Below are positions 2,710 through 13,162 of a stretch of DNA of 64,000 bases, one piece after another. Numbering within the stretch: the stretch's first letter is position 1; every line of letters starts with the position of its first letter. Position numbers and translations under genes: made by a program. The notes below the pieces were generated by a model. That model was not told the DNA's origin, did not search any database, and worked only from the letters and a program-made list of their open reading frames with translations. Where the stretch lies: assembly GCA_963758635.1 (NCBI GenBank), contig CAVWWD010000003.1, positions 480,001 through 544,000 on the forward strand, in the 5' to 3' direction. This DNA comes from an uncultured Candidatus Rokubacteria bacterium. Lineage in GTDB: Bacteria; Methylomirabilota; Methylomirabilia; Rokubacteriales; CSP1-6.

Positions 2710-5028
<2,319 letters not shown>

Positions 5029-5029
5029 G

Positions 5030-5147
5030 TCGTCCTCCGTTGCCGCCGTGGCTACGGGGCGGCTCCGGAAACGACGCGGCCGCCTCGAGCTTCGGGGCGG
5101 CCTGTTGGAATTGCGGTCAGGGCAGGGGCCGCCTCAGGGGAGCGGCC
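5030..5147 (-). promoter_or_regulatory. Ribosome-dependent attenuator of trpS
   Basis: Minus-strand segments GGCCGCTC (5140-5147), GAGGCGGCC (5127-5135), GGCCGCCCCGA (5092-5102), TCGAGGCGGCC (5078-5088), GCCGCCCCGTAGC (5051-5063) and GGCGGC next to the RBS allow alternative pairings. Confidence 0.8.
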
Positions 5148-5184
5148 ACCACCAGCAGGAGCGGAGCAACGTCGCGGTCGGCAT
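5134..5184 (-). CDS. Trp leader peptide MPTATLLRSCWWWPLP
   Basis: 16-codon ORF with three consecutive TGG codons about 105 nt upstream of trpS. Confidence 0.88.
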   Translation of the reverse strand: MPTATLLRSCWWWPLP

Positions 5185-5190
5185 GCGGGA

Positions 5191-5219
5191 ATGGTGTCAC
5201 GGCGCGCACGGGCCGTCAA
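5191..5219 (-). promoter_or_regulatory. sigma70-like promoter giving a leaderless leader-peptide mRNA
   Basis: TTGACG-N17-CACCAT with TG extension, 6 nt before the leader ATG. Confidence 0.65.
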
Positions 5220-5237
5220 CGCGACGCAGCATCGGGG

Positions 5238-5290
5238 GGTCAGGTCTTGATTTCGCACATGCCGACCGTGTTGCATTTCAAGATGTGACC
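5238..5290. repeat. REP-like imperfect inverted repeat
   Basis: GGTCAGGTCTTGA ... TCAAGATGTGACC (11/13 complementary); related to 23497-23534. Confidence 0.55.
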
Positions 5291-5322
5291 GCGGGTGTTG
5301 CACGCGCCGCGGCCGCGGCTCT

Positions 5323-6116
5323 CTAGGGGGCGGGCGCGGTATCGGCGAGGCCCCGGAGGATGGCCCGCTCCACCGCGCACAGCCCGGGACCGTCGCGCAG
5401 GGCGAAGGGCTGACGGTGCGCGATCTCGGGCTGCGCGATGATCCGCGGCCGCGCGCCTCGATGCGGCCAGGTGGCGCGGTGGACGAGGAAGGGGTGGCAG
5501 ACGTACACGTCGCCGGCCTGCCCGGTGGCCCGGACGCGCGGCCGCTCGAAGGTCGCCGCGCCGAGCCGCGGGGCCACGTCGCCGGAGAGCATCCCGCGCT
5601 CGCCGTGCGGCGCGAGCACGCGCGGCACGTCCAGGTGCGACCCCACGATGAGCTCGGTGGGCGCGTCGTCATCGCCGACGTTGGTGAAGAGGAACAGGGC
5701 GAGGAGCGCGCGCCGCCGGCTGTGCACGTTGACCCACCACGCGCCGTCCACGTCGTAGCTGCCGTCGATGTGCCACCCGGCGTCGCCGGGATCGCGCGCG
5801 CTGGGGAACCGGACGGGGATCGTGCCGCCCACCCCGTAACGCTCGAGCCAGCGGGCCTGGCCGCGGAGCGCGTCGTAGGCGCGCCACAGCGCGGGAGACG
5901 TGCCCGGCGGCCGCGAAGGCCGGGCCCTCCGGGCAAGGAATGCGAACGACGGGCTCGTCGCCACGTGGCCGGATCGTCGGCGTCGACGCCGTGACCGCGC
6001 AGCTCGGCCGCGATGGCCTCGACGCACGCGCGGACGACGTCTGGGGCGACGGCGCCGCGCACGATCAGGAAGCCGTCCGCGCAGAACTGCTCGACGTCCG
6101 GCGTGTCGGGTGACAT
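5323..6116 (-). CDS. Phytanoyl-CoA dioxygenase (PhyH) family protein, frameshifted
   Basis: VEQFCADGFLIVRGAV; GWHIDG; ATGQAGDVYVCHPFLVHRA. Confidence 0.8.
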
Positions 6117-6255
6117 CGGTCGAGCTTACCGCATCGCGGGGTCTCGCCTGGAGCGCCCTGCCGAGGCAACTCGCCCCCCGCCACGATACGATTGACGCCG
6201 CGGGCCGCGTGGCCGATCATTCAGGGCGGTACCCGAGGGAATCCGGAGCGCATCC

Positions 6256-6683
6256 ATGTCCGATCAGGCGCTGAACACCGTCCGCGACCGCGCGCGGGAG
6301 AACCTGTTCTGGCGCCATCTGGGCATCGAGGTGGACGACGCCCGCGAGGGGTGGGTGCGCCTGCGCGTGCCCCTGCGTGACCCGCTCCGGAACGCCGCCG
6401 GCGCGCCCGTGCACGGCGGGGTCTACAGCGCGCTGGTGGACACCGCGGTGGGGGGCGCGCTCTCGACCATGCACGATAACGCGGCGGGCGGCGTGGGGCA
6501 GACCACGCTGGACCTGAACGTGAGCTTCATCTCGGAACGAGCGACAGCGACGTGTTCGCGGAGGGGCGCATCCTGCGCCGCGGGCGGACGATCGCGTTCG
6601 GCGAGGCGACCATCACCGACTCGGCCGGACGGCTCCTCGCCGTCGGCCGGGCCACCTACATGATCCTGGCCCCGCGCAGCTGA
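6256..6683 (+). CDS. PaaI family thioesterase; frameshift near 6535
   Basis: NAAGAPVHGGVYSALVDTAVG; TLDLNVSF; second frame gives VFAEGRILRRGRTIAFGEA. Confidence 0.85.
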
Positions 6684-6717
6684 GCGGGGCAGGACGGCAG
6701 AAAAAGGAGACCGAAGC

Positions 6718-7690
6718 GTGCCAAAGATCCTCTTCTCGCCCCCCACCTCCAAGACCATCGTCGACATCGGCCGCGGGATGCTGCCCCAGGGCTACGAGTT
6801 CGAGGTCGCCGAGATGGGCACGCCCGAGTTCGCGAAGGCCATCACGGAAGCGGACTTCTACCTGGGATTCGTCCGCGGCGGCATGGACGCGGCGTTCTAC
6901 AAGTCGGCGCCCAAGCTGAAGCTCATCCAGCTCATCAGCGCCGGCTACGACCGGCTCGACGTGGCGGCGGTGCGCGCGGCGGGCGTGCCCGTGGCCAACA
7001 ACGGCGGCGCCAACTCGGTGGCGGTGGCCGAGCACACGATCATGCTGATCCTGTCCGTGCTCAAGCGGCTGGCCTGGCACCACGCCAACGTCTCGTCGGG
7101 CAAGTGGCGCGTGGGCGACTCTCGGCGAGCAGCGCTGCTACGAGGCCGAGGGCAAGACGCTCGGCATCGTGGGGCTGGGCACCATCGGCAAGAAGGTGGC
7201 GCGGCGCGCGCAGCCCTTCGACATGCACCTCCTGTACTACGACATCGCGCGCCTCACCGAGGACCAGGAGGACGCGCTCGGCGTCCGCTTCGCGCTCCTG
7301 CCCGAGCTGCTGCGTGTCTCGGACATCGTGACGCTCCACGTGCCCTTGAACGACAACACGCGCAACATGATGGGGGCCAAGGAGTTCGCGCTGATGAAGG
7401 ACAGCGCGATCCTCATCAACACGTGCCGCGGCCCGGTGGTGAACGAGGACGCCCTCTACCAGGCCCTCACCACCCAGCAGATCGCCGCCGCCGGCCTCGA
7501 CGTCATGACGGAGGAGCCGCCGAAGACCGACCACCCGCTGTTCAAGCTCGACAACGTCACCCTCACCCCCCACACGGCGGGCCCCACGCTCGAGAACTGG
7601 ACCAAGGCCTTCCGGAACGCGTTCGACAACATCCAGCGGGTGGCCCGCGGCGACAAGCCGCTGTGGGTCATCCCCGAGCTGCGCGCCTGA
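6718..7690 (+). CDS. D-isomer-specific 2-hydroxyacid dehydrogenase; frameshift near 7130
   Basis: SAGYDRLD, VAEH, GLGTIG, INTCRG, AAGLDV, TPHTAG. Confidence 0.9.
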
Positions 7691-7727
7691 GCGCCCGCGA
7701 GGGCAAACCACAAAAGGAGCCAGAGAC

Positions 7728-8230
7728 ATGGCGATCAAGGCTGGTGACAAGCTTCCCGATGGCACCCTCACCGAGTTCGTCGAGGAAGAGCGTCCGGGCT
7801 GCACCGTGGGCCCGAACGCGTTCAAGGTGTCCGACCTCGCGAAGGGCAAGAAGATCGTGATCTTCGGCGTGCCCGGGGCCTTCACCCCGACGTGCTCGGC
7901 CAAGCACGTGCCGAGCTTCACGGCCAACATCGACAAGCTCCGCGCCAAGGGCGTGGACGAGGTCTGGTGCCTGGCCGTGAACGACGCCTTCGTGATGGGG
8001 GCGTGGGGCAAGGACCGAAGGCCGGCGGCAAGGTGCGCATGATGGCCGACGGCAGCGCGAAGTTCACCAAGTCGCTCGGCCTCGAGCTCGACCTGGTCGA
8101 GCGCGGCATGGGCACGCGCTGCCAGCGCTTCTCGCTGCTCGTGGACGACGGCACGGTCAAGAGCGTCAACGTCGAGGCGCCCGGCAAGTTCGAGGTCTCG
8201 GACGCCGACACGATGCTGAAGCAGCTGTAG
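7728..8230 (+). CDS. Peroxiredoxin (Prx5 subfamily); frameshift near 8015
   Basis: VPGAFTPTCSAKHVP; VNDAFVMGAW; ADGSAKFTK. Confidence 0.92.
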
Positions 8231-8257
8231 CCCGCATCTCCGCGCTCTCGCGTCTTC

Positions 8258-8295
8258 CGGGCGCCCTCATCGCGAGGTGAGGGCGCCCGCTTCGT
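8258..8295 (+). terminator. Terminator-like hairpin after peroxiredoxin
   Basis: CGGGCGCCCTCATC-GCGA-GGTGAGGGCGCCCG (GNRA loop); weak U tract. Confidence 0.6.
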
Positions 8296-8311
8296 CCCCG
8301 CCGCCGGCTCC

Positions 8312-8340
8312 TTGCTCGCCCGCGCGCGCCACGCTATAGT
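8312..8340 (+). promoter_or_regulatory. sigma70-like promoter
   Basis: TTGCTC-N17-TATAGT in otherwise GC-rich DNA. Confidence 0.6.
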
Positions 8341-8346
8341 CCAGCT

Positions 8347-8391
8347 GTGCACCACCGCGTGCGAGATCGTCGGGCTGTGCATCGCCGCTGA
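8347..8391 (+). CDS. Candidate leaderless short ORF MHHRVRDRRAVHRR
   Basis: GTG lies 6 nt after TATAGT; rich in His and Arg. Confidence 0.3.
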   Translation: MHHRVRDRRAVHRR

Positions 8392-8646
8392 TCCCAGTAG
8401 GCCGTTCACGCCGACCCGGATCGGACCATCCGACGGGACACGCATCTGCGCGAAGGCCGCGCGGCCGGTCGTCTTCTCACGCATGCGGCGCACGCGCGCG
8501 GCGAACCTCGCCGGGATCGGGACGCCGGGCTAAAGAGCGCGCACGCTGGCCGGCTCGTCAGCGCACCTCACGCCCGGCGGCAAGCGCGGCGACCGGGCAG
8601 TTCCCTCCAGTAGGCCGCGCGCGGGACCCTGACGCCGGAGCTCCAA

Positions 8647-9022
8647 ATGATCGAACACCGTCTGGACACGACGCGCTCGATCCTCCACGTCCGACCGAAG
8701 TCCGCGCTCGCGCGGGAAGACTTCGCTGAGCTCGCCCGGGCGGTCGACCCTCACATCGAGGCGACCGGCGGCCTCGCCGGCCTCATCGTCGAGCTCGACG
8801 CGTTTCCCGGATGGGACAGCCTGGGGGCCATGGTTGCTCACTTCCGCTTCGTTCGCGACCACCACCAGCGCGTCCGGAAGGTCGCCGTGGTCACCGACGC
8901 CGCCCTGGGCGACATCGCCGAGAAGCTGGCGTCTCACTTCGTGGCGGCGAAGATCAGGCACTTCGCCGGCCGGCCACGCCGATGCCGCACGACACTGGAT
9001 CATGAGCGCGGATCCGGCATGA
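8647..9022 (+). CDS. STAS/SEC14 (SpoIIAA-like) domain protein; frameshift near 8965
   Basis: FPGWDSLGAMVAHFRFVRDHHQRVRKVAVVTD; tail ADAARHWI in the next frame. Confidence 0.8.
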
Positions 9023-9052
9023 GCGTTCCGCGGGAGACCTAGCTCGCCGTGG

Positions 9053-9881
9053 TCAGCGGAGGAGCTGGCCGGCGGCGCGGATGCGCGCCGAATCGAACGG
9101 CGGCTCCACGAGCAGGATCACCCGGTCCACGCCGAGGCGCTCCAGCGACTGGCGCGTGGAGGCGTCGGGCCTGAGGTAGGAGTCGCGGAGGCCGCCGAAC
9201 ACCGTCACGACGAGGCCGGCGGGATCGCGCCCGGAGTTGGCGCGCGCCACGCGCGCCACGCCGATCAGGTCGGCGAGCTGCGGATGGCCGGCCTGGGTGT
9301 TGATGCCGTCGGCGTGACTGCCCGCCGATCGCCGCCATGCGCGGGCCGAACCCGCCCACGATGATCGGCGGCGGCGGATCCGGCCGGAGGAAGCCACTCG
9401 GCCGCTCCAGCCGGTAGTGGTCGCCGTGGAAGCTGGACGCGTCGCCCGCCCAGAGCCGCTTCATCACCTGCGCCGCCTCGGCGACCCGCTCCGCGCGGAT
9501 CCGGTCCGGCGCCACCGGGATGCCGAGCGACTCGTGCTCCACGGCGTACGACATGCGCCGGTGCGCGCCGGCGCCGAGCCCCAGGAGCAGGCGGCCGCCG
9601 GAGACCTCCTGGAGCGTGGCCGCCATGTTCGCGAGCAGGCCGGGATGGCGCGCGCTCACGTTCAGGACCAGCGGTCCCAGCATCACGCGTGTCGTGACGG
9701 AGGCCAGCGCGGTCAGCACCGTCCACGCTTCCGGCACCCGCGACGACGCGGCGCCGTCGGGATCGCGCAGGTGATCCCACGTCCAGAGACCATCGAAGCC
9801 GGCTTCTTCCGCGGCGATCGCCGCCTCGCGCATCTGGGACCAGCGCGCGCCCATCGGCATGAAGAGCAGGTCGGTCTTCAC
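9053..9881 (-). CDS. LLM class flavin-dependent oxidoreductase; frameshift near 9320
   Basis: AEEAGFDGLWTWDH; ATLQEVSGGRLLLGLGAG; PPIIVGG; CATACT 6 nt before the GTG. Confidence 0.88.
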
Positions 9882-9952
9882 GGCGGCAGTATGGTCCAGG
9901 GCGGCGTGCCGGTAAAGGCCGAGCCGCCGCTCGCGTCCCGGCGGGACAAGCG

Positions 9953-10166
9953 TTGTGTCCGGCGCCAGGCGCGTGCTATGGTCTCCGCATGAGTCGAATT
10001 AGACCGTCAGCCATAGGCCGGGGAGAGTCCGTGAGCTGACGGTCGTTTGCATCTCTGTTCCATCACACGCGGCCGTCAGGGTTCCCTGGCGGCCGTCGTG
10101 CTTTTCGCTCTCGCGCACGTGGACCGCCGCCGGGAACCCTGACACCGCAGACACGGGGAGCCGGAC
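9953..10166 (+). promoter_or_regulatory. Promoter and ribosome-dependent attenuator of ileS
   Basis: Extended -10 TGcTATGGT (9974-9982); segments GACCGTCAGC (10002-10011), GCTGACGGTC (10035-10044), GGCCGTCAGGG (10071-10081), CCCTGGCGGCC (10084-10094) then GCTTTT, and GCCGCCGGGAACCCTGAC (10126-10143). Confidence 0.75.
9989..10039 (+). CDS. Ile leader peptide MSRIRPSAIGRGESVS
   Basis: ATG 6 nt after TATGGT; Ile codons are ATT and ATA, rare in this window; overlaps attenuator segments 1 and 2. Confidence 0.7.
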   Translation: MSRIRPSAIGRGESVS

Positions 10167-13162
10167 ATGTTCGAGAGACCAGGACCGCTGGACTTCGTGG
10201 CCATCGCCCGCGACACGCTCGCCCAGTGGGATCGCGACCGCGTGTTCGAGCGCCTCGTCGCCCAGAACCGCGGCGGCCCGCGCTTTTCGTTCCTCGACGG
10301 GCCGATCACCGCCAACAACCCCATGGGCGTCCACCACGCGCGGGGCCGCACGTACAAGGACGTCTTCCAGCGCTACAAGGCGATGTGCGGCTTCGACCAG
10401 CGCTACCAGAACGGCTTCGACTGCCAGGGCCTCTGGGTCGAGGTCGAGGTGGAGAAAGCGCTCGGGCTGAACGACAAGCGCGCCATCGAGGAGATGGGGC
10501 TCGAGGCCTTCGCGCGCGCGTGCCGCGAGCGCGTGGTCCGCTTCGCCGCGCAGCAGACCGAGCAGTCACGCCGCCTCGGCCAGTGGATGGACTGGGACCG
10601 CTCGTACTTCACCATGGCGGACGACAACGTCGCGCACATCTGGCACTTCCTCCGGCGATGCCACGAGCGCGGCTGGATCGTGCGCGGCCACCGCGTCATG
10701 CCGTGGTGCACGCGCTGCGGCACGTCGATCTCGCAGCACGAGATGCTCGAGTCGCACGCGGAGCTGACGCACCCGTCCGTGGTCGTGGCCTTCCCCGTGA
10801 AGGATCGCGAGGGCAGCTTCCTCCTCGCGTGGACCACCACGCCGTGGACGCTGCCCGCCAACGTCGCCCTCGCCGTGCACCCGGAGCTGGCCTACGAGGC
10901 CGTGCAGGTGGGCGACCGGCGCTACTACGTGGCCGCGGCGGCCCGCCCGCGCCTGCCCGGCTTCACCGACGTGCGCGAGCGCCTGCCCGGCGCCGCCCTC
11001 GTGGGATGGCGCTACGCGGGGCCCTTCGACGACCTGCCCGCGCAGCAGGGCGTCGAGCATCGGGTGATCGAGTGGGACCAGGTGGCGGCGGACGAGGGCA
11101 CGGGCATCGTGCACATCGCCCCGGGCTGCGGCGAGGAGGACTTCGAGCTGGGCCGGCGCGACGGCCTCGCCGTCCTCGCGCCCGCCGACGAGGGCGGCGG
11201 CTACGTCGCCGGCTACGGTCCGCTCGAGGGCAAGCGCGTGGCCGAGGTGGCGCCCGAGATCGCATCGCGCCTGCGCGCCGCCGGCCTCCTCGTGCGCGAG
11301 GCTCCGCATCGCCACCGGTACCCGACGTGCTGGCGCTGCGGGCACGAGCTGATCTTCCGCGTGGTCGACGAGTGGTTCATCCGCGCCGACGAGGTGCGCC
11401 CCCGCGCCCTCGCCGCCAACGCGGGCGTGACGTGGCTGCCCGAGCACATGCGGCCTTCGCATGAACGACTGGCTCACGAACATGGGCGACTGGTGCATCT
11501 CGCGCAAGCGCTACTGGGGCCTGCCGCTGCCGTTCTACCCGTGCGGCGACTGCGGGCGGCTGACCGTGGTGGGCTCGCGGGCGGAGCTGCGCGCGCTCGC
11601 CGTGGACCCGGCGGCCGTGGACGCGCTGGAGGAGCTCCACCGGCCGTGGATCGACGCCGTCGCCGTCCGCTGCCCGGGCTGCGGCTCATCCGTGGCGCGG
11701 GTCGCCGAGGTCGGCGACTGCTGGCTCGACGCGGGCATCGTGCCCTTCTCCACGCTGCCGTACCTGACGGATCGCGAGGCGTGGGCGCGCTGGTTCCCGG
11801 CCGATCTCGTGGTGGAGATGGCGGCGCAGATCCGCGGCTGGTTCTACGCGCTCCTGTTCATGTCCGTGGCCCTCGAGGACCGCGCGCCGTACCGCGTGGT
11901 GGTGGCCCACGACCGCGTGCTCGGCGAGGACGGGCGCGAGATGCACAAGAGCTGGGGCAACGCGGTGTGGCTGGACGAGGCGCTCGACCGGATGGGGCCG
12001 GACGCCGTCCGCTACCTGTTCGCCGCGCACCCCATGGCCGATCCGATCCGCTTCGGCGAGGGCGCGGCGCGCGAGGTGACGCGCCGGTTCCTCACGCTCT
12101 GGAACGTGCTCGGGCTGTTCGTGACGTACGCGAACCTCGACCGCCCGGCGCTCGCCCCGGATGCCGCCGCGCCGAGCGGCGCCGAGGGGCTCGAGGCGTG
12201 GATCCTCTCGCGCCTGCAGACGACCGTGCGCGAGGTGCGGGGCGCGCTCGACGCGTACCAGCTCCGCCGGGCCCTCGCGGCGATCGAGGACTTCGTGCAG
12301 GAGGACCTGTCGAACTGGTACGTGCGGCGGCGCCGGCGGTGGTTCTGGAAGGGGGAGATGTCGGCGGACAAGGCGCAGGCGTACCGGACGCTCCACCACG
12401 TGCTGGTGCGCGTGGCGCAGCTCCTGGCGCCGGTGACGCCGTTCGTGGCCGAGCGCATGTACCGCACGCTCCTGGGCGACGGAGGCGGCCGGCGCGGAGG
12501 GGCTCGGCGCGGCCGCGGGCGGGATGCCGCCGAGCGTGCACCTCACCCGCTTCCCGGAGGCCGATCCCCGCCTCGAGCGGCCCGATCTCGAGGCCGCGGT
12601 GGCGTTCGTCCGCCGCGCGGCCACGCTCGGCCTCGCCGTGCGCAACGCCGCCGGTGTCCGCGTGCGCCAGCCGCTGGCGCGCGCCGTGGTGCGCGGCCCC
12701 GCGCCCCTGGTCGCGTGGCTTCCCACGTTCGCGGCGGACCTGGCCGACGAGCTGAACGTGGAGGCGGTGGAGGCCGTGGCCACCGACGGCGACGCGCCGT
12801 GGGCGCCGGCCGAGGGCGCGCGCGCGGCCACGGAGGGAGACCTGACCGTCGCCCTCGACCTCGCGCTCACCGACGGCCTCCGGCGCAAGGGGCTCGTGCG
12901 ACAGCTCGTGCACCAGGTCCAGCTCCTGAGGAAGTCGGCGGGCCTCGACGTGGACGACCGGATCCGGCTCGCCGTCGCGGCCGGCCCGGAGAGCCACGCC
13001 GCGTTCGACGAGCACCGCGACTACATCTGCGCCGAGACGCTCGCCCTCGACCTGGTGTTCGGCCCCGCGCCCCCGGGCTTCGTGAGCCGTGACGTGCGGC
13101 TCGACGCCGGCCCCGTCACCCTGGCCCTCGCGCGAGCGGACCGCCAGCAGGCGGCGTCCTGA
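10167..13162 (+). CDS. ileS: Isoleucine--tRNA ligase, type 2, with GVHH motif; frameshifts near 11455 and 12500
   Basis: FSFLDGPITANNPMGVHH; GFDCQGLWVE; WTTTPWTLPAN; GTGIVHIAP; DWCISRKRYWG; EMHKSWGN; LSNWYVRR; type-2-like tail (LRKSAGLDVDDRI). Confidence 0.93.

Follow-up and report, generated by a model that had tools for sequence, protein, structure and literature searches.

A predicted leaderless leader-peptide attenuator with one invariant isoleucine codon upstream of an accessory isoleucyl-tRNA synthetase gene in Candidatus Rokubacteria

The window, as the whole 64,000-nucleotide stretch analysed is called here, comes from an uncultured Candidatus Rokubacteria bacterium with a GC content of 71%, and contains a gene for an isoleucyl-tRNA synthetase (IleRS), ileS2, preceded by a short leader open reading frame (ORF) and five segments capable of alternative pairing (Table 1). 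The encoded protein has GVHH in place of the class I signature HIGH, and the Pfam domains tRNA-synt_1, Anticodon_1 and DUF5915 are identified on the three pieces into which it is divided. The gene changes frame twice, and several neighbours also appear frame-shifted; because of these neighbours, and because 6 of the 12 orthologs lie in open frames longer than 1000 aa (the intact ortholog in genome G185 has 1042 aa), an assembly error is the likelier cause. Within 4069-13162 of the window, several genes, among them trpS, ileS2 and neighbours, appear to change frame, consistent with indel errors in the assembly.

Table 1. Features of the ileS2 leader region, in window positions
Feature	Position	Strand	Remarks
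Extended -10-like promoter element TG-n-TAnnnT (here TG-C-TATGGT)	9974..9982	+	Leader ATG follows after 6 nt; a leaderless transcript is predicted
Leader ORF, 16 aa, M-x-R-I...	9989..10039	+	ATG at 9989; open in 53/53 leaders; stop confined to two fixed sites at segment 2
Invariant codon pair CGA-ATT (Arg3-Ile4)	9995..10000	+	53/53 distinct leaders; sensing probably at ATT
Second Ile codon ATA, codon 9	10013..10015	+	Common, dispensable; Ile in 38/53
Segment 1, pairs with segment 2	10002..10011	+	Least conserved helix; 1:2 paired 84.7% over 53 rows
Segment 2, pairs with 1 or 3, holds leader stop codon	10035..10044	+	Core identical in the 13 protein-found genome leaders; 2:3 paired 97.4%
Segment 3, pairs with 2 or 4	10069..10081	+	From sequence and helix alignment
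Segment 4 with imperfect U tail, a predicted terminator	10084..10105	+	3:4 paired 99.8%; segment 4 proper 10084-10096
Segment 5, pairs with 3:4 loop and segment 4	10127..10143	+	Predicted lock of the read-through fold
Shine-Dalgarno-like GGGGAG of ileS2	10155..10160	+	From sequence
ileS2, type-2 isoleucyl-tRNA synthetase	10167..13162	+	GVHH replaces HIGH (10326-10337); three frames in the assembly, shifts near 11462 and 12500-12524

The leader had been noticed in an earlier, sequence-only reading of this DNA, and the parts then described are all in place: between 9974 and 10039 lie TG-C-TATGGT, a 6-nt spacer, the ATG and a 16-codon ORF with its ATT and ATA codons, segments 1 and 2 are exact reverse complements, and the fifth segment is present at 10127-10143. 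Segments 3 and 4 form the strong hairpin that had been proposed, with 12 bp and a T-containing tail, CGTGCTTTTC, which is interrupted and has a longest T stretch of only four. This hairpin is the sole terminator-like site within 9800-10250 (shuffle mean 0.0, n=50), and the predicted fold of the leader, at -59.1 kcal/mol (z = -5.5), is equalled by 0 of 200 shuffles. The preference for ATC noted in surrounding genes extends to the 2060 long ORFs of the genome, in which Ile is encoded by ATC (97.9%), ATT (1.7%) and ATA (0.4%). The description of the leader's Ile codons as rare therefore suits ATT with respect to usage, but not with respect to a scarce tRNA, since ATT is decoded through wobble by the ordinary tRNA-Ile(GAU), for which the source genome has two genes. 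A well-conserved GG(AG) sequence lies in the 1:2 loop (leader positions 33-36, window 10021-10024), a few bases 5' of a GTG/CTG codon near the stop.

Orthologs of ileS2 were sought by protein only (E<=1e-65) in 251 genomes of the phylum, and 13 were found, including that of the source genome (G000); all belong to one family and span 6 genera, and all 13 loci carry the leader. A scan of metagenomes with a pattern covering segments 2-4 only, the ORF start being left out, returned 121 loci from 27 of 64 collection parts. The hairpin core is present at 49 of these, and the leader at 47 of the 49; the other 72 were dropped for absence of the core, and none has an IleRS match or CGAATT upstream. Two metagenome loci (L184 and L242) have a 3:4-type hairpin with a TTTCGTT tail but neither an M-x-R-I leader nor ileS, and were set aside as probably unrelated terminators. 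The resulting 60 leaders (13 genome, 47 metagenome) comprise 53 distinct sequences. In 56 of the 60, ileS2 lies downstream, and the remaining four run out within 88 nt. The downstream proteins are 61-84% identical to that of the window; the leaders are thus close kin rather than 53 independent trials, and the counts overstate the independent evidence.

Beyond these loci, a looser pattern matched 73 of the 251 genomes, mostly by chance, and by eye only the known ileS2 loci are leader-like. Three unpublished genomes (G009, G023 and G115) enter only the denominators and chance matches and support no claim. Among 80 more distant GXHH ileS2 loci of other phyla (from 6 of the 64 collection parts), the M-x-R-I leader is absent from the 330 nt upstream; a T-box-like motif was found by pattern at 8 of them, and Rfam confirmed 3 of the 7 submitted.

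Comparison of the 53 distinct leaders reveals which parts are held constant. Codons 1, 3 and 4 are ATG, CGA and ATT in every one, whereas codon 2 takes nine different amino acids; the CGA-ATT bases lay outside both leader-finding searches. Codon 9 encodes Ile in 38 leaders (ATA in 34, ATC in 4), and otherwise Met (8), Thr (5), Leu (1) or Trp (1). The peptide is 14-16 aa long. The spacing from TAnnnT to ATG is 6 nt in 47 leaders, 7 nt in five and 5 nt in one, and an SD-like motif precedes the leader ATG in just three. Across the genome, counts of TGnTAnnnT before an ATG peak at spacings of 6-10 nt, with 23-37 occurrences against 1-10 at other spacings, an enrichment suggesting that many mRNAs of the source organism are leaderless or have very short leaders.

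The best sequence evidence that the leader frame is translated comes from its stop codon and from one leader with an in-frame 6-nt deletion. The stop lies inside segment 2 in 45 leaders and 5 nt earlier in the eight others, each shorter by one base; all eight retain the earlier TGA, on which they depend, and it is altered in 8 of 44 full-length leaders that do not use it. In-frame stops occur in none of the 53 leaders, compared with 39 and 52 of 53 for the other two frames, figures that arise largely from conserved bases and are non-independent.

The controlled gene is an isoleucyl-tRNA synthetase, as the sequence-only reading had assumed, but it is not the housekeeping copy. A second ileS on another contig of the source genome (C10) encodes a protein that is 40% identical, with the canonical HIGH motif and a zf-FPG_IleRS domain, and on these features it is the housekeeping IleRS1. 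A second ileS is likewise present in 11 of the 12 relatives (all but G193, a genome that is 78% complete), with HXGH readable in 10 of the 11. Immediately ahead of the ATG of the C10 gene is a -10-like element, with no leader ORF in sight; ileS1 looks leaderless in the source genome and in most relatives.

Several comparisons place the window's protein in the other class. First, the signature motif at the 60 loci is GIHH in 30, GVHH in 20 and unreadable in 10, so that all 50 readable loci have a non-canonical GXHH. Second, DUF5915, the IleRS2-type C-terminus, is found in the window piece and in the G185 ortholog, and zf-FPG_IleRS only in the C10 copy. Third, the top PDB matches (8c8w, 8c9d, 8c8v, 8c8u and 1ile) score 612-630 bits, against 306-316 bits for 8c9f, 8c9e and 1ffy; we take the former to be type-2 and the latter type-1 structures. 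Fourth, in a quick tree retaining 96 of 97 rows, the leader-bearing proteins, 11 of which were included, group as one clade (SH-aLRT 98) inside the GXHH IleRS2 group. A MupA model gives 562 bits for the window-type protein and 341 for the C10 copy; both are far under the cut-off of 1900, which rules out identity as MupA itself. The distribution of ileS2 is patchy (13 of 251 genomes) and its neighbours vary. The window's ileS2 thus encodes an accessory type-2 IleRS that is predicted to resist mupirocin: according to the accessible text of a study of such enzymes, a G/AXHH motif raises the Ki for mupirocin up to 1000-fold (PMC10485003). With an accessory GXHH enzyme beside IleRS1, the likely purpose of the leader shifts from amino-acid homeostasis to inducible inhibitor resistance.

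All three alternative helices are retained across the 53 rows (Table 1), including the 2:3 pairing proposed from the window (97.4% paired). Covariation is slight, since segments 2-4 are nearly invariant and, for the 47 metagenome leaders, served as the search pattern: the 3:4 helix has one A-U to G-C swap, in two rows, changes on both sides occur in three cells (as high in 2 of 500 shuffles), and the overall score is matched by 65 of 500 shuffles. The alignment of relatives from which the sequence-only reading expected conserved Ile codons and compensatory changes thus bears out codon 4, kept as ATT in 53 of 53, but leaves codon 9 variable and the compensatory changes slight.

Folding predictions were made with a ribosome assumed to block 13 nt past its A-site codon. 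In transcripts ending after segment 3, helix 2:3 forms in 51 of 53 leaders with the ribosome at codon 4, in all 53 with it at codon 9 and in none with it at the stop. Without a ribosome, 26 of the 53 nascent leaders already favour 2:3, indicating that helix 1:2 is weak in half of them. Full-length leaders at equilibrium adopt 3:4 in 53 of 53 under every ribosome mask; the predicted switch must therefore be kinetic, operating co-transcriptionally. When 2:3 is forced, segments 4 and 5 pair in 42 of 45 leaders, the segment 5 duplex is better than shuffles at p<=0.05 in 28 of the 42, and in G191 both the loop and segment 5 are altered in such a way that they still pair. When segment 5 is taken into the calculation, the OFF fold remains the more stable by a median of 3.2 kcal/mol, and the ON fold is favoured in only 3 of 45 leaders.

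How the folds would act on ileS2 can be read in two ways. The same ribosomal sensor might work without intrinsic termination, the 3:4 hairpin either freeing the pyrimidine tail to pair with the ileS2 Shine-Dalgarno sequence or permitting Rho-dependent termination. The interrupted U tail suits such an output, as do an RNAalifold prediction from the 13-genome alignment, in which the tail pairs with the Shine-Dalgarno region, and the conserved segment 5, which lies 3' of the tail and can act solely on read-through RNA; one Streptomyces trpS leader is also described, in the available part of its source, without a U run (PMC8079986). Against it, the Shine-Dalgarno sequence is predicted to be almost equally accessible in both states (median unpaired 0.33 OFF and 0.37 ON; ON better in 12 of 45 leaders, worse in 5), and all 53 leaders have 5-8 T in the 10 bases 3' of the stem. 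A non-intrinsic output is judged unlikely, and transcription termination at the 3:4 hairpin is preferred. Judged by its sequence and predicted folds, the element works like a classical attenuator, with a short conserved upstream ORF, a conserved codon for the amino acid of the downstream enzyme, mutually exclusive helices and a strong hairpin called as terminator-like; of the features open to comparison, only a clean U run is wanting. RNA data were uninformative: 10 runs matched the leader region of G147, all of them as contigs and with shares <=0.16, and among four examined in detail the three recorded as RNA have almost no cover over the leader and, being contigs, leave starts and ends invisible.

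Genes for ileS are often regulated by T-boxes, and a degenerate or ultrashort T-box riboswitch reading uncharged tRNA-Ile directly could in principle account for the hairpins. T-box control of ileS is reported in Actinobacteria (PMC1262725) and Bacilli (10.1101/2022.02.09.479832), as far as the accessible text of these sources goes, and another ileS2 within the same order, in genome G033, has a T-box. In the window, Rfam at gathering scores gave no match over the whole stretch, and, as the sequence-only reading had predicted, RF00230 gave none around the leader even at E<=10, nor in nine ortholog loci, with positive controls detected. The G033 T-box, which has an AUC specifier, was found at E=1.2e-9 (47.9 bits, under the gathering score, which is 93), so the E-value search that was empty in the window can detect a local T-box. 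The UGGNACC bulge is absent from all 60 leaders proper (two matches sit 96 nt upstream of the ATG), sequence conservation drops to background upstream of the -10 element, and no AUC specifier is conserved: just 15 of 60 leaders have ATC in their 1:2 region. The T-box reading is thus largely refuted on sequence grounds and is scarcely credible for this leader. The ileS2 at the G033 locus (L006:442-697) is of a different subclade and has an AIHH motif; its T-box has no obvious U-rich terminator and is possibly translational.

A ribosome that senses Ile through the leader is, by comparison, very probable, and the proposal of a leaderless upstream ORF, competing hairpins and ribosomal sensing of Ile as the likely signal is supported. 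The proposal of two dispersed Ile codons as the sensor is not: codon 9 is Ile in just 38 of 53 leaders, and eight leaders have one Ile in total. Since codon 4 is invariant in all 53, the sensor would therefore be one codon, ATT at position 4, rather than two.

The invariance of CGA-ATT at the level of bases exceeds what Ile sensing requires. CGAATT might be kept for another reason, as a protein-binding site immediately downstream of the start, as part of an arrest peptide M-x-R or for Arg sensing on CGA, with Ile incidental or half of the signal. Both codons are invariant at synonymous positions despite being uncommon (CGA accounts for 4.1% of Arg and ATT for 1.7% of Ile codons), the stretch is near-palindromic, and a general 5'-end codon bias, which was considered and rejected, provides no explanation, as only one of the 14 Ile codons found at codons 2-5 of putative leaderless genes is ATT. 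On the other side, CGAATTAG occurs just twice in the 6.2-Mb genome with no sign of a regulon, which rejects a repeated operator; the hexamer invariably occupies codons 3-4 in frame, the enzyme encoded downstream is specific for the same amino acid, Ile, and the placement of the hexamer suits the 1:2 versus 2:3 geometry. Conservation of CGAATT for a reason other than Ile sensing is held to be quite improbable. Three further candidates were also rejected: conservation for pairing in the 1:2 transcript (the bases are 0.95 unpaired), forced slow inosine decoding of CGA (the genome has tRNA-Arg(UCG)) and a macrolide-type R-x-R motif (codon 5 is Ser in 36 of 53).

Together, these features probably form an attenuator of transcription, leaderless and operated by the ribosome, through which a backup IleRS2 with predicted resistance is induced when charged tRNA-Ile collapses. 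Transcription would start at the leader AUG, where a ribosome would load. With Ile-tRNA plentiful, the ribosome would reach the stop codon and cover segment 2, so that 3:4 could form and transcription end at the U tail. With IleRS1 inhibited, the ribosome would wait at the invariant AUU of codon 4 and cover segment 1; 2:3 would then pair before segment 4 is synthesised, and 4:5 would keep the read-through fold. The IleRS2 produced would recharge tRNA-Ile, and expression of ileS2 would be self-limiting. A single codon would set a high threshold, as fits an inhibitor rather than mild starvation. It is also conceivable, if tentative, that CGA in the P site and a wobble-read AUU are tuned to ignore a mild shortage of Ile and to fire only upon poisoning of IleRS1.

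The same sensing of Ile-tRNA could instead serve ordinary Ile limitation, or a non-antibiotic stress that disables IleRS1, rather than resistance. A ribosome at an Ile codon cannot distinguish starvation from inhibition; the antibiotic role is one that we infer, and these genomes have no link to a producer organism. The housekeeping ileS1, however, has no such leader, and ileS2 is patchily distributed, has varying neighbours and bears the hyper-resistance motif. In addition, the affinity of characterised IleRS2 enzymes for Ile is lower than that of IleRS1: in the text available from one study, the KM for Ile is 19-49 uM for wild-type IleRS2 and 2.1 uM for PmIleRS1 (PMC10485003). Induction of such an enzyme would be of little help in plain starvation, and inhibitor defence is the better rationale; a purpose in starvation or non-antibiotic stress is considered unlikely, and defence against an IleRS inhibitor, likely a drug of the mupirocin type, remains the preferred role.

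A second leader of this kind lies in the same window. An ORF with WWW and an attenuator-like hairpin, at 5134-5184 on the minus strand, is located upstream of trpS at 5028, which places two accessory synthetases 5 kb apart. This trpS is a second copy in its genome, and orthologs are found in 16 of 251 genomes; at 13 of these loci the leader has two or three consecutive Trp codons, and several of the leaders start with GTG. By eye, these accessory trpS leaders share their layout, an interrupted tail and a fifth segment with the ileS2 leader, traits that thus belong to an unambiguous leader-peptide attenuator of the lineage. The likeness of the two leaders had been drawn from the window: both peptides have 16 aa and both spacers 6 nt, but the Trp -10 element is CACCAT, and the equal length looks coincidental because the Trp leaders of relatives span 13-18 aa. 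One of them, in G187 (L300), is about 35-50 nt shorter than those of its relatives and appears to lack the 3:4 hairpin, with the WWW ORF kept. As in Streptomyces, the accessory trpS may be a resistance copy of the indolmycin type.

The nearest known counterpart is from Streptomyces coelicolor, in which Vecchione and Sello (2010) reportedly described a leader-peptide attenuator before the gene for an auxiliary tryptophanyl-tRNA synthetase resistant to antibiotics. That system likewise places a leader-peptide attenuator upstream of an accessory synthetase, antibiotic-resistant there and predicted to be so here. It differs in amino acid, enzyme, likely drug and lineage, which here are Ile, IleRS2, a mupirocin-type compound and a group outside Streptomyces, and in that the sensing codon here is codon 4 inside an invariant CGA-ATT, with a conserved fifth segment. 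More generally, the classical trpL of enterobacteria is a short upstream ORF with cognate codons and 1:2, 2:3 and 3:4 hairpins. The Streptomyces leaders and trpL share with the present element the short upstream ORF, the cognate codons and the competing hairpins. As described in the accessible portions of the sources, the trpL2 leader of S. lividans trpS is leaderless with a single Trp codon (PMC8079986), and leuS, thrS, alaS and ilvB of Streptomyces have leaderless leader-peptide attenuators (PMC1262725; PMC8079986). Unlike the leuS, thrS, alaS and ilvB leaders and trpL, the present one has one fixed cognate codon rather than a run, and the accessible parts of those sources contain no ileS example.

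Pairs of ileS genes are known from another lineage. Priestia megaterium, in the available text of its report, has IleRS1 and an accessory resistant IleRS2 that is induced about 70-fold by mupirocin and varies in genomic position, and control of ileS2 is there proposed to consist of a T-box and CodY (10.1101/2022.02.09.479832); Bacillaceae alone are named as carrying both genes in the accessible text of a second source (PMC10485003). The arrangement of a housekeeping and an accessory gene is the same as here, whereas P. megaterium has a T-box with CodY and a canonical HVGH, and the present lineage a leader-peptide attenuator and GXHH. Likewise, the ileS T-boxes (translational in Actinobacteria; RF00230 in Firmicutes) act on the same gene class, respond to uncharged tRNA-Ile and use competing hairpins, but the present leader has no Stem I, specifier or UGGN bulge, and its predicted sensor is the ribosome. 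A search of full-text literature, mostly open-access, found no leader-peptide attenuator for ileS.

If the proposed mechanism is correct, ileS, for which the RNA control described so far is the T-box, would here be governed by a leader-peptide attenuator, a different route to the problem solved by the T-box of Bacillus ileS2, in an order that also contains an ileS2 with a T-box. The 53 variants form a natural series in which to study how one codon drives attenuation and what its 5' neighbour codon contributes, and the leader of ~180 nt might serve as a sensor for IleRS inhibitors. The genomes add a second lineage with an IleRS1/IleRS2 pair, here bearing the hyper-resistance motif. A one-codon sensor tuned in this way may, as a speculation for which there is some reason, give a second lineage outside the Bacillaceae an inducible hyper-resistant IleRS2, and point to antibiotics that target IleRS as a selective force on these bacteria.
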